A program made the position numbers and the translations under genes. Shown piece by piece: positions 4,130 to 60,192 of a stretch of 64,000 nucleotides of DNA. The stretch spans positions 332,382,001 through 332,446,000 of the forward strand of contig OZ024740.1 of assembly GCA_964016885.1 (NCBI GenBank), read 5' to 3'. The first letter of the stretch is position 1. Each line of letters opens with the position of its first letter. Origin of the DNA: Eledone cirrhosa. Taxonomy: Eukaryota. The notes beneath the pieces are model-generated. The model searched no databases. It saw only the letters and a program-made list of their open reading frames with translations, and was not told where the DNA came from.

Positions 4130-4295
4130 AATAAACGAAGCTAAATTTTAATCATTTGACTTTTATTTAACTTTATTTTACACTACTCCGGAGTAACCAA
4201 ACCAACCTGCGCACTTCGTCGAGTGCTCCAGCCTGCATACTGAGGTGTTGGTATACAACCAACATAAACTCAAAATCTATATATATATATATATA

Positions 4296-4545
4296 TTAAA
4301 ATAAAAGATTAAAAAAGTTTAAGCAACGAATCGCTGCTTTTACTCTTGGTTGCAACGTTTTTTGAAATATTCACTTCTGCATTCACAGATTAACTTTGTT
4401 AGTTTCAGAAGATCCCTTTAAGAGTGAAAGCAGCGATTCTTTGCTTAAACTTTAATCGTTATTTTAATAAATATTTGCTCTACGGTTCTTATATAGTTGA
4501 TATATATTTATCCTTATCGAGCCCTCTTCGGATTTTAGTCTTCAA
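4296..4545 (+). mobile_element. Small fold-back pLTR insertion with variant hammerhead (4401-4451); opposite-strand copy at about 7267-7470
   Basis: 4296-4347 is inverted to 4421-4468. AGUUU-CAGAAGA..GAAAG..CUU-AAACU; tail hairpin 4477-4526. Confidence 0.7.
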
Positions 4546-6004
4546 ATTTATTATTATTACTATATATATATATATATATATATACACACATATATCTATA
4601 TATATACATTGTTACCTTTTTTTGTTCATTCAGAAGAAGAGGTCTCACTACAATCTTATACGTAAGACATTTTAAACACACATTTGAACTTGGTTGATAG
4701 GGTTAAACGTTTGCATCTCTTCTTCCATTAACAGTGTAATCGCTGTATTGGACGACATCTCCGCCCATATCACTTTTGAGTGAAGACAACTAAATATCAA
4801 TAACCCCAGAATGTGAGACATAAATCTAAGCAGTTGTTTTGATTTCATAATTAATTTTGATTCATATACTCACAAAAATGTATTATTAAATATATTCTAG
4901 CTTATGTATTATCACCGATACAACCATACACATAGCTGCGTATATTTATGAGATCGTAATTTATCAGTTAAACACATCTGTATATCAATCATGACGTAGC
5001 TAATCAAGACTGGGATATCAGGAAGTATCAGTATCTATTTAGTTGGCCAGAGTAATCGAGCTCTCTTCACATCGGATGTAGGTTACGAAAATAATTTCCT
5101 ATCCTTACGTGACAGAAAGGAAGAAATTGCAGCTGATATAACCTAAGTGAACGAGTTTGTATACTATAAAACTGTAGAGAAATCATTTATTTCGTAAATG
5201 TATTTTGACAGATCCTAGTTTAGAATTGTAAAGTAATTATATATGACTTCCAGAAAATCTTAATACGTAAAGTGTCCCCTATTTAATTAGAATATATAAC
5301 GCTGATACTTAAAGGAAAAGCCCCAAACAAGCTTCATACGAAGGCGGAAATATGCTGACATCTTTCTATTAATAATTGAGTATACATGATATATATTCAT
5401 GTAATGCCTAGTTGAAAATTAACTGACTCAGACATATCTAACTGTAGAATATCCAAATATACAACAAGTTTCTATCCGTAGAGATTCTGAAATAGAATGT
5501 TATTTTCAGACTAGATCAACAATTATTTTAACAATTACACAGCACCCTAACATATATAAAGGTATATGTTTCTAAAAAAATAGATTATCATTATTACACA
5601 TTTTTTCTCCTTAGAAATATTGTATTTTAGTCGTTTGTCATATTAAACGATGTTCAAATAACATTTTTAGTTCAAAATAGTTTAGGAAACAGCTCCTAAC
5701 AGGGAAACATATTGTGTGCTTAAATTAGTTATTTTTCAATAGACTGATCATTTCGCCTGTGCAAGAAAAGAATTGTCAGACATCGAATAACACACATACG
5801 CCAGGAAAATGGGTATGAAATCGATTCAGCAACTGAGTAACTTTGAAGTATTCAGTAATTTATTGGGGTCCATTCTTTATTCTATTTACAAAAAGGTTAA
5901 TTCTCAATATATATATATACACAGACATATATATATGTATGTATATATACATATAACGATAACTTGATGAAACTCTTACATTTGTTTTGATTATATATTC
6001 CAGC

Positions 6005-6250
6005 ATACATGGCTAAGAGTGTGAGATGTTAGATTCACAATTAACAATCATAAGGTCATGAGGTTAATATTCGAGTGTGCCTTGTGTTTTTGAACAAACA
6101 TCTTTGATCCACTGAGCTTGCAAAAGTAAATTTTACCTGCAATCGAAATGATCATCTGTGTCATATATTGTCCCAGTCTAATTCCTTCTATGTACTATAT
6201 TAAGGATACACATGCATATAGCATATAAATGTCAGGAACATAATTTTGTG
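6005..6250 (+). mobile_element. Degenerate tRNA-derived SINE
   Basis: Weak similarity to the SINE at 57427 (TGGCT..GTG head; TTGTGT..TTGA.CAA; CCACT.AGCT). Confidence 0.4.
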
Positions 6251-7877
6251 AAGTCCGATTATTGAGGTAACAATAGACAGAACTGATATTTCGTCTGAAT
6301 TATTTTCTCTAGCAATAGCAGTATATATATTTCACCATACTCAGTCATAATATTAGAAAAATGTATCGAATTTGCTTTCCAGTTAGAACAAGAGATTTTA
6401 TTTTTAAAGTAATTCGTGCTAACACTATGTGCACATATGTGTGTCAATTCATTTGTATGCAACATCTTTAGATAATTATATATTTATATGTAATTTGGCA
6501 GATTTCACCACTGGTCTTTAGCAACCACGGTATTTGAAGCTATGTACACACACACACACACACAAACAGACACATACACACATACTCTCTCGCTCTCTCT
6601 CTCTCTCTCTCTCTCTCTCTCTCTCTCTCTCTCTCTCTCTCTCTCTCTCTCTCTCTCTCTCTCTCTCTCTCTCTCTCTCTCTCCCTCTCTCTCTCTCTCT
6701 CTCTCACACACACACACACAAACACACACATATACATATATATATATATGTATAAGTGTGGAAAGCTCAACTCATATGTTACGATTCGAATATGTATAAC
6801 ATTTTATGTTTATCTAACCACTTTGTTAAACATGGTGTCGTATTTTCGATAGCTTTGCATCCACATTATTTTTTTGATAAGTATATATAACCAAACAATC
6901 TATAATGTATCAGTATTTTTCCTTTAATGTAAATCTTTTTTCTGTTTCCTCTTTTCTAATCATCTAAATCTATCTATCATTAACCACTAAGTATTAAAGT
7001 TGAAAACATATGTGTATAAGAGTGTATATGTATGTATAGGATGATGTGTCATTCCACAACTTCTTTGATGATAGCGTTTTCGTATGAACACGTTTCTATA
7101 CCTTTATAGCTATATATACATCCAGCATATTGGTTTCATTTAATTAAAATATATATATATATATATATATATATATAAATATATATATATGTATATTAAG
7201 AGTGAGAAATGAAATTTCGTTTCATTTTTTCCATTTATATATATATATAGTAATCATAATAAATGTGGAAGACTAAAATGAAAAGAGGGCTCGATAAGGA
7301 TAAATATATATCAAATATATAAGAACCCTAGAGCCAATATTTATTAAAATAACAGATTAAAGTTTAAGCGACGAATCGCTGCTTTCACTCCTCTTCTGAA
7401 ACTAAAAAAAATCAATCAGTTAATGCAGAATAAATATTTCGAAAAACGTTGCAACCGAAAGAAAAAAGGAAGACGATACTTTGGTTCGTGAAGACGTTAC
7501 CTGGCAATGAACGGTAAGAAAAGCGAAGATAATACGTCGTTATGTGGAACGATGAGAACAAATACACGCAAAGACAAAACCACGTTTATGGTATAAAGGT
7601 ATAAAGGGAGTCATAGACTAATATTCTATTTAGGAAACTGAATGATTCTCGGCTTCGGAGTTAAGAATAATGTAAATAAATTAGTAGAACGAAAATGACA
7701 GAATTATTAAAATCCTAAAAGTAATAATAATTAAATATATACATATACACATCATATACGTACATACATGTGCATGCGCGAAAACACCATGCATGCATAT
7801 ACATGTACGTACACATAAACACGCGCACACATACGTAAACCCGTCATTATTTTTCTGGCGATGGATTATTTTTCTAG

Positions 7878-58205: not shown

Positions 58206-58345
58206 TAACGATGGAAATGTGGTAAGGAACCAGGTGGACCATAACGCACCAAAGTACTCAATACTTAGGGTAGTAGAGTGGGTAATAGTCCAGAATAAGC
58301 CGTCGAAACGGTTTGAGCTCAGCCGTCGGGGTCCTACTCGTTCCT
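58206..58345. mobile_element. 140-bp minimal derivative of the 25971-28588 family
   Basis: 58206-58287 is the tail (minus), joined to 58287-58345, which matches 28451-28509 (plus). Confidence 0.85.
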
Positions 58346-58433
58346 ATATATATATGACCTTTTCTGTTTTCAACGGAAATTTCAATACTTATATATAATT
58401 ATATATATATATATATATATATATATATATATA

Positions 58434-58815
58434 TTGAGTATATGTTGGTTGTATACCAACACCATAGTATGCAGATTTGAGCACTCGACGAAGTGCGCAG
58501 GTTGGTTTGGTTACACCGGAGTAATGTAAAATAAAATAAAATAAAATAAATAAATCAATTGTTTAAAATTTAGCTTCGTTTATTACTGCTATATATATTT
58601 CAGTGACAGCCATCTTTGGCTGTGACCTCTTCGAATAAGTGTGGTATCGACAAGTACATATGTTGTTGAGGTGTACAACATATGTACTTCTCTATACCAC
58701 ACTAATTCAGACTGCCTGAAGAGGTCACAGCCAAAGATGGCTGTCACCGAAATATATATAGCAGTAATAAACGAAGCTAAATTTTAAACATTTGACATAT
58801 ATTTTATTTTATTTA
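58434..58815 (-). mobile_element. Fold-back copy of the 3311-4277 family (hammerhead 58711-58765 plus)
   Basis: Tail 58434-58527; arms about 58550-58667 and 58676-58812. Confidence 0.88.
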
Positions 58816-59877
58816 TATATATATATATATATATATATATATATATATATATATATATATATATATATATATATATATATATATATATATATATATACTT
58901 ATATATATATATATATATATATATATATATATATATATATATATATATATATATATATATATATATATATGGGTTGTCTCCCCTTCCCGCTTCGTGTCGC
59001 TATGATACTTCCTCAGTCAAAAACTGCTGGAATTTCAAATTTGGCGGTCATTCGAGGTGAGAGAAAGCAACTTTACGGACACAACTTTTGACAGCGGTAA
59101 GAAATTGTTTTCTTATATCTATGTTTAACGGGCTTCCACTGATGATTTATAAGTACCCACCTAAATATATTCTTACATGAATATATATTAGGCTTCTACA
59201 TAAACTGGAAACATTCTCCCAACTTGTAGAAAACTTATAATGAAACAATTGTTTGGAAAGAGAGATATACTTTAACTTTAATTATATCTCATAAAATAAT
59301 ACAACTGGTTTTTCCACATTATACATATTGTTAGCACCCCAAACACTTAAATTGGGTTTATATTTTAATATAACCTAATGTTTGTTGAGTGAGATGGTTA
59401 CCAGTCAGAGTTTAGCTTTAAACTATCTCTGTTATTGTATTAAATATATATATATATATATATATATATATATATATATATATATATATATATATATATA
59501 TATATATATATATATATAGAGAGAGAGAGAGAGAGAGAGAGAGAGAGAGAGAGAGAGAGAGAGAGAGAGAGAGAGAGATACTAGATGATTCAGTGAATTA
59601 CTGGTGGTGGTACCTGTGTATCGACCTGTCACTCCCGGTTCGCAGAGAATTTGCTCAGCGTCAACCATAGAAATTATGGGACCGACTCCATTATCATTGT
59701 GTTCTTCAGACAGGGGATTTGACAAAAAAAATGTACATTTTGACGCATTGCCAGACCGAAGAGTAGATCGATAATGGATCGGGTCCATCATTACTATGGC
59801 TGACTGCTTGATACATAATAAAACTCTAAATACATGTAAAAGTAACTTCATCTTTCTTTTATATATATATATATATA

Positions 59878-60192
59878 TGATATTAATAAATGGAAACTAT
59901 ATTTATAAAACCATATTTATTCTATTATATATATTTCAGGAAAAACTACCCAGGAAAAACTTCCTGGATGTGTAAATGTTTATAAAACAAACTTTGTATT
60001 TTATCTGATGAGAGCGTACCAAAGTGTTGGAACCCTTGAAATATATATAATAGAATAAATATGGTTTCATAAATACAGTTTCCATTTATTATATCATTGA
60101 TATTATACTCCAAAAAACTTGTCGACTGCTTCGAATCAGTTATAAATATATATATTTGTTGAATTACCAACAAATTAAATATCCGTCTTGCT
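59878..60192 (+). mobile_element. Fold-back copy of the 17240 family (hammerhead 59999-60055)
   Basis: Left arm 59878-59937 inverted to 60037-60098; UUUUAU-CUGAUGA..GAAAU-AUAU-AUA-AUAGAA; tail 60099-60192. Confidence 0.85.

Follow-up and report, generated by a model that had tools for sequence, protein, structure and literature searches.

Two homologous bulged hairpins mark both outer ends of Neptune-type Penelope-like insertions in Eledone cirrhosa

Introduction

The closest described system is the Poseidon Penelope-like element (PLE) of Anolis (PAc), for which in vitro work placed two internal starts of reverse transcription that bound the tail and found both target strands to be cut and extended (Frangieh et al. 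2024, PMC11167929). The template in that system is RNA left uncleaved by the hammerhead, RNA 3' of the starts is required, and a dimer is predicted (PMC11167929). Here we analyse a 64-kb window of the 3.0-Gb genome of Eledone cirrhosa (contig OZ024740.1, positions 332,382,001 to 332,446,000), in which (TA)n is abundant and in which PLEs that we assign to the Neptune type have two outer ends, each lying a few bases 5' of one of two homologous bulged hairpins (HP1 and HP2) located between the hammerhead and the start codon. Coordinates below are positions in this window.

Fixed or paired starts of reverse transcription have precedents of several kinds. In twin priming of L1, two target ends prime on one RNA and the second priming site is not fixed; stringent long interspersed nuclear elements (LINEs) carry a single 3' stem-loop at the RNA end; and in telomerase template-boundary elements and hepadnavirus epsilon, an RNA hairpin docks the reverse transcriptase (RT) at a fixed distance from the start, epsilon being protein-primed. 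In contrast to L1, LINE stem-loops and epsilon, the insertions described here have two sites that are both internal and fixed, each with a hairpin of its own.

The likeness to PAc extends to two starts bounding a tail, an AT-rich target and insertion from both strands, the starts in our case being read from genomic junctions. However, the PAc starts lie inside the open reading frame (ORF) in an AC-rich stem-loop, whereas our putative starts map 5' of the ORF, each ahead of a separate copy of the conserved bulged hairpin; for PAc, priming is described as nonhomologous and a duplicated cis-element is not reported, whereas our junctions show 2–4 nt of overlap with the target; and the tails are 30–40 nt in PAc and 60–168 nt here (PMC11167929). 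In the Poseidon RNA as given in the text of Fig. S1B of the same paper, two GGCCA..AGCC stretches 41 nt apart can be seen by eye near the starts, and these could represent a twin signal, or else just form base pairs together. Endonuclease-bearing (EN+) PLEs of the Neptune, Naiad and Penelope/Poseidon groups share with our families the partial tandems, an inverted 5'-truncated copy, a tail at one end, (TA)n targets and a Cys-rich linker, but the available parts of the papers describing them attribute the tail to resolution by the endonuclease (EN) and the inversion to self-priming, and give no RNA landmark for the ends (PMC8557442, PMC3846280). PLE hammerheads and non-LTR retrozymes likewise have a minimal type I hammerhead in the pseudo-long terminal repeat (pLTR), but the accessible text of those papers leaves aside the tail and the sequence 3' of the ribozyme (PMC4209133, bioRxiv 10.64898/2026.07.22.740005); a term search of the latter, in the portion at hand, found no occurrence of tail, hairpin or stem. 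A circular template for copying more than one unit was proposed in PMC4209133.

Results

Both Outer Ends Are Fixed Relative to a Hairpin.
Each insertion joins two arms head to head, a short arm that stops just 5' of HP1 and a long arm that continues through HP1 into a tail. In copies read through at internal tandem junctions, a second homologous bulged hairpin, HP2, starts ~3–12 nt beyond the long end and is followed by the start codon; HP2 past the long end was seen in read-through copies of 12 families (E, A, B, F, two bulk families, X, C, G, two G-like families and D). Because these copies run on into HP2 and the ORF, a reading of the long end as an RNA end is not supported. When all fetched copies were mapped against 12 read-through references, with family N kept outside the totals, 161 of 164 TA-flanked ends at HP1 and 188 of 193 at HP2 fell 0–16 nt 5' of the respective hairpin (12 families). 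The distance from end to hairpin is mostly 6–8 nt, BLAST end effects shifting the mapped ends of some families by a few nucleotides, and, with gap-free placement, the long ends of families A and E again fall at 6/3 nt.

The spacing from HP1 to HP2 ranges from 66 to 168 nt across families and, as both ends sit just 5' of one or the other hairpin, the tail corresponds to this spacing. The correlation of spacing with tail length is partly circular and was not used. Measured from the predicted hammerhead cut, the short end lies at distances that differ between families (~18–56 nt, vs. mostly 6–8 nt to the hairpin), and the hammerhead was therefore rejected as the ruler.

An unbiased scan covered 1.234 Mb, consisting of the window, its flanks and 200 kb from each of three other contigs. 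Probing 2,453 TA-run edges yielded 114 tails of 30–160 nt in 40 clusters. The hairpin motif started 0–20 nt past the arm end in 64 of the 114 tails, 49 of these at 6–9 nt; the same motif was found in 3/114 upstream windows, 16/114 reverse complements, 140/5,700 shuffles and 87/3,000 random genomic 90-mers. Motif-bearing tails make up 21 of the 40 clusters, and the other 19 include other PLE types, simple-repeat false matches and decayed copies, not all of them vetted.

The two ends recur genome-wide. Pattern searches found 15,617 matches to an anchor of family E and 3,727 to one of family A; among 100 listed matches each, counted by hand, 50 stopped at the short end, 49 entered HP1 and 1 did otherwise in family E, and the corresponding numbers in family A were 44, 52 and 4. 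Of thirty family-E loci picked with an upstream query, 14 had a short end, 11 a long end and 5 an internal junction, with no other outcome. A sequence-only reading of the window had proposed that independent copies reuse the same ends, and the recurrence in families E and A bears this out; the broad scatter that it had named as speaking against itself is not what we see, the ends being fixed. Nine hairpin starts that it had placed (4185, 4477, 14524 minus, 17588, 28517, 49724 minus, 56031, 57304 and 60107) have RCTC at the given base in 9/9 cases, and its inverted-arm ends agree within the 1–4 nt common to the element and the TA target. Its proposal of two programmed ends, with the short end linked to the hairpin, is supported; its placing of the long arm at the RNA end, drawn from terminal copies, is not supported, since the read-through copies pass into HP2 and the ORF.

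Read-through copies were not obtained for family H or for bulk clusters 4, 8, 10, 11, 17, 22, 28, 30 and 36. In a subfamily of family D, none was evident by eye among 100 listed long ends, and read-through was reached via the ORF instead.

Hairpin Motif and Its Covariation.
The motif consists of a 4-bp stem NCUC/GAGN', a 3'-side bulge of 1–2 nt starting with U, an upper stem of variable length and a loose RCUYU after it, the whole hairpin measuring 16–95 nt. In a set of 41 hairpins (one row of them wrong), the first stem pair is G–C in 25, A–U in 13 and U–A in 2, and two U–A at pair 2 and two A–U at pair 3 are each changed on both sides; compensatory variants of the lower stem are UCUC/GAGA, GUUC/GAAC and GCAC/GUGC. 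The first pair above the bulge is paired in 37/37 corrected curated hairpins (C–G 19, U–A 14, G–C 2, A–U 1 and U–G 1). Among 90 copies of family E, variation concentrates in the loop (37 and 33), with no more than 3 per site in the stems. Folded in isolation, the hairpins have a stem probability of 0.77–1.0 in most references.

A scan of prokaryote assemblies returned three PLE contigs (L383, L384 and L385; 37–43% protein identity) in three bacterial metagenome-assembled genomes, presumably misbinned animal host DNA. Both HP1 and HP2 are present in 2/2 contigs from other organisms that include the 5' region (37–40% protein identity). L385 has the HP1 stem GCAC/GUGC, and its terminal copy stops 4–7 nt on the 5' side of where HP2 lies, running into (TA)n. 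The 5' region is missing from L382 and L383, the latter being a head-to-head pair without assembled ends.

Insertions in the Window.
Self-comparison of the window after masking gave ~10 unrelated head-to-head inverted-repeat families, each between TA runs. The features are as follows.

3312..4277, plus: family A insertion in (TA)n, with a short arm (minus, outer end 3312) and a long arm (plus, tail end 4277) joined head-to-head; 98% inverted match over 3312–4178
4080..4124, plus: predicted minimal type I hammerhead of family A, cut after 4124 (descriptor match and stem I check)
4185..4224, plus: family A HP1, with the short-end position 4178–4180 directly 5'; HP2 of this family is seen only in read-through copies outside the window
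4296..4560, plus: short family B insertion, HP1 4477–4522, tail end 4560; HP2 present in read-through copies
8887..9206, minus: old decayed copy, HP1 8933–8952; short arm unmappable
14465..15290, minus: family C insertion, long end 14465, HP1 14505–14524 (one stem base mutated), short end 15290
17242..17668, plus: family D insertion, predicted hammerhead 17483–17528, HP1 17588–17606; HP2 present in read-through copies
25972..28588, plus: family E insertion, short arm (outer end 25972) and 5'-truncated long arm; short-end position 28508–28511, long end 28588–28591; 99% inverted match between arms
26618..27280, plus: 3' part of the family E ORF (RT C terminus, Cys-rich linker, GIY-YIG endonuclease), 98% to residues 496–716 of the 717-aa tandem-unit ORF
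28408..28491, plus: predicted hammerhead of family E, U3–A8 core variant, cut after GUC at 28491 (by fold)
28517..28540, plus: family E HP1
38508..38956, minus: family E copy with long end, HP1 38556–38579
49633..50660, minus: family F insertion with internal tandem junction, terminal HP1 49689–49724, internal HP1 50320–50355, short end 50660
50234..50251, minus: family F HP2, UCUC/GAGA stem variant, 7–12 nt 3' of the long-end position; no other HP2 was found within the window
55862..56108, plus: family G copy, HP1 56031–56051; a further small inversion breaks up the tail
56958..57391, plus: family H insertion, HP1 57304–57329
58208..58347, minus: short family E insertion, long end 58208, HP1 58256–58279, short end ~58344–58347
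58434..58813, minus: second family A insertion, HP1 58483–58522, short end 58813
59879..60192, plus: second family D insertion, predicted hammerhead 60005–60049, HP1 60107–60127
20123–20147, 56771–56791, 57908–57928 and 3056–3113, all minus: further HP1 copies in older insertions, absent from the sequence-only reading

The old copy at 8887 had been set apart as not fitting clearly; it does have an HP1 on the minus strand, and its short arm is too decayed to map.

Element Class.
On their sequence, the families of the window are Neptune-type PLEs set in (TA)n. The full unit of family E, taken from a tandem array elsewhere in the genome, is 3,531 nt long and has a single ORF of 717 aa in which the RT is followed by a linker and then, at the C terminus, by a GIY-YIG endonuclease. 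The RT motif GGLYRDDG and the VIY..YIG motif are kept in 20 homologs; 2,036 homologs pass E 1e-30 among 8,000 scored, and one homolog carries PF01541; a Pfam scan of two proteins gave no match at E 0.1, a PDB sequence search gave 0 matches, and the viral contigs and plasmids searched held no relatives. The pLTR in partial tandem, the inverted 5'-truncated copy, the one-sided tail and a hammerhead motif in the pLTR, predicted by descriptor or fold, place these elements among EN+ PLEs, and the linker that separates RT from EN, with four cysteines (CNC..CP..C) in 21/21 aligned proteins, together with the (TA)n insertion bias places them with Neptune, for which the Cys-rich linker is the defining trait (PMC3846280, PMC8557442). 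We use the label "Neptune-type," as the clade was assigned by this linker and not by an RT tree with named Neptune/Nematis references. Non-LTR retrozymes, defined by a short noncoding tandem unit with a hammerhead, are a different class, because the family E unit is 3,531 nt and coding and because, in A, B, C, D, G, X and N, the read-through copies run into the start of an ORF.

Hammerheads were located by descriptor in families A, C, D and N and by fold in E, the strict descriptor missing 8 of 13 references; in the five references with a located hammerhead, both ends lie 3' of the predicted cut, as the sequence-only reading had proposed. In the hammerhead of family E, U3–A8 replaces C3–G8, a paired change in the catalytic core. 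A gathering-threshold Rfam scan of the 64-kb window gave 0 matches, and the miss of the family E hammerhead may be due to this core change.

Arm Pairing, Junctions and Template.
Inverted pairs combine one short and one long end in 38/38 rows of family E, a few of which represent the same insertion twice, and in 14/15 rows of family A, where half would be expected if the ends were chosen independently; pairs with the same end on both arms are few in the bulk sample and mostly widely spaced. Either arm may be longer at its 5' side, and the short arm often exceeds the long arm (e.g., −863 vs. −439); one short arm is a four-unit array joined to a 287-nt long arm. The outer junctions overlap the TA target by 2–4 nt; 153 of 176 share at least 2 nt with the TA run, against 9% expected by chance, though the copies within a family are not independent and many anchors were left unclassified.

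The inner junction varies, as had been noted earlier, though not freely. Both arms of short family-E insertions mostly stop 50–78 nt 5' of HP1 (window equivalent ~28440–28467), in the 3' strand of hammerhead stem II, which suggests a hot spot of stalling or joining. In family A, a candidate hot spot of inner junctions coincides with a palindrome near −229.

Of 116 family-E arms, a single one starts at the predicted hammerhead cut, which indicates templates that were uncut or religated there and agrees with the uncleaved template suggested earlier. In a single further case (L057), one short arm lacks 10 nt starting exactly at the predicted cut. Terminal copies have no HP2, and copying of the full ORF would thus need a template in which the ORF lies 5' of both hairpins. 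As a linear transcript of n units would return at most n−1, arrays of several units would need a circle, template jumping or duplication at the DNA level. In one array (L031–L033, G000:C1:437.198–437.214 Mb), four full 3,531-nt units have a single variable site, which reads C, T, C, T along the array; this fits a two-unit template copied twice, whether as RNA or DNA, and could also be an assembly error. The junction of a circle is identical in sequence to a tandem junction.

Discussion

Probable Hairpin-Positioned Twin Priming.
The ends at twin hairpins are a real, genome-wide and cross-species feature. We think they probably reflect target-primed reverse transcription that starts twice on a single RNA, with the two hairpins as docking sites that position the starts; within this scheme, the binding of protein, the folding of the RNA, dimerisation and the sequence of steps are inferred. 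Two copies of the RT-endonuclease, possibly as a dimer, would occupy HP1 and HP2 of the same RNA molecule and nick the two strands of (TA)n. The 3' end freed on each strand would then pair over 2–3 bp with UA(U) ~6–8 nt 5' of a hairpin and prime complementary DNA (cDNA); the cDNA primed at HP2 would take in HP1 and the spacer, which becomes the tail, the one primed at HP1 would have no tail, and the two 5'-truncated cDNAs would be joined head to head. A template with the full ORF could be a transcript of at least two tandem units or a circle cut by the hammerhead and religated.

Several observations weigh against this interpretation. The starts of reverse transcription are read from genomic junctions only, and the end mapping set aside 68 arm ends that had no adjacent TA run. 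Family N has roughly fixed, if more ragged, long ends followed by only a bare GCAC/GUGC hairpin, a degenerate HP2 without bulge or upper stem, and fixed tails lacking a hairpin of the RCUC type occur in other PLE types of this genome. The hairpins in the sets of 41 and 37 were anchored by hand, which inflates the pair counts. When whole regions are folded, HP1 is often paired with HP2 or a hairpin is missed, and the z-scores (+0.42, +0.06, −0.93, −2.52 and −2.23) are weak in three of five regions, so the hairpins would be weak without protein. The preference for one strand is weak (G–U 8 vs. A–C 4; sense and antisense fold equally), and a covariance model, left rough by MAFFT misalignment of the hairpins, found held-out HP2s only at E 0.55 and 1.2. 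Finally, reads of the RNA run X1 (share 0.07) cover only 3383–3516 (134 nt) of L032, in the family E array, and run X2, which may be the assembly's own sample, has the same two loose ends; neither was used as support.

Alternative Explanations.
The twin motif might instead be read in DNA, with the GIY-YIG endonuclease cutting at TA 5' of each copy in cDNA or a double-stranded intermediate and so resolving the short and long ends. We regard this as unlikely, though it has some footing in the literature: PMC8557442 ascribes the tail to EN-mediated resolution, and PMC11167929 cites the Penelope tail sequence as needed for EN recognition of DNA. The equal folding of the two strands with a small G–U excess, and the position of the ends at UA/TA, the EN target, point the same way. 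However, compensatory stems and an upper stem free in length fit a single-stranded structure rather than a duplex site, the folding energies as DNA are weak (mean ~−2.5 kcal/mol), and in the one PLE tested, reverse transcription started on the tail boundaries (PMC11167929).

Less probable still, the hairpins could serve packaging, translation or folding of the hammerhead, with the ends set by UA microhomology or by a protein bound elsewhere. HP2 does lie just before the start codon in most families, and family N keeps its long end despite the degenerate hairpin; against this, many other UA steps in these regions go unused, and the distance from end to stem stays constant within a few nucleotides while the hairpin spacing varies over its whole range.

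Two further schemes have very little probability left. Priming of the long arm at the RNA 3' end, with only the short arm positioned by a hairpin, accounts for terminal copies ending at the long site, into (TA)n; it was rejected, as the HP2 data weaken it strongly: read-through copies continue past the site, no hammerhead cut lies there, and the long end is as far from HP2 as the short end is from HP1. Equally improbable is single priming, in which either the long cDNA is folded back on itself or self-priming takes place on an antisense template, as PMC3846280 proposes, and copying stops at HP1, for although many inner junctions are near-symmetric and some lie at palindromes, short arms that reach further 5' than their long partners, the four-unit array among them, could not have been copied from the long cDNA, and fold-back copying was rejected.

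Novelty and Implications.
Two internal starts, the tail, the template uncleaved by the hammerhead and the idea of a circle have already been published. What appears new is the duplicated hairpin, from which both ends can be predicted: in the full-text literature, our search of which did not extend to older subscription papers and Repbase notes, we found no description of such an element setting both PLE ends. The question of how the PLE tail and the head-to-head inverted insertions arise is two decades old, and the one in vitro study placed two starts without naming, in its available text, what sets them (PMC11167929). Here a short RNA element, present twice and covarying, predicts both ends and makes the question open to direct experiment. 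It would identify the cis-signal for the RT clade nearest to telomerase, offer a simple rule by which PLE boundaries and nonautonomous copies could be annotated, and account for single-unit copies being dead ends in the absence of a tandem or circular template.

More tentatively, and with slightly less than an even chance of holding, we suggest that the duplicated bulged hairpin is an RNA "start ruler" throughout the Neptune-type elements of many animals, by which a dimer of the RT-endonuclease is brought onto the two hairpins of one RNA, possibly a circle made by the hammerhead, and insertion proceeds from both ends of the target simultaneously. If so, shifting two ~20-nt hairpins would make it possible to program the length of the tail and the position of both termini.

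Other Elements.
Cluster 1 of the unbiased scan (G000:C1:332559853 and 12 other bulk copies) is a different PLE type with an Asn-rich ORF, a fixed 60-nt tail and no RCUC hairpin; the 6-mer AUAUCG follows both of its ends and is possibly a different twin signal. Clusters 21, 37 and 38 (G000:C3:150.074–150.115 Mb) are 310-bp tandem arrays with an inverted arm and a 32-nt tail in (TA)n, a retrozyme-like nonautonomous PLE with another motif. Within the window, 567–1148 holds a fragment beside a trinucleotide repeat that, from its translation, we take to resemble a non-LTR element with a restriction-like endonuclease, and 46173–47909 is, again from its translation, presumably a fragment of a LINE with an apurinic/apyrimidinic endonuclease and RT (APE-RT, RTE-like).

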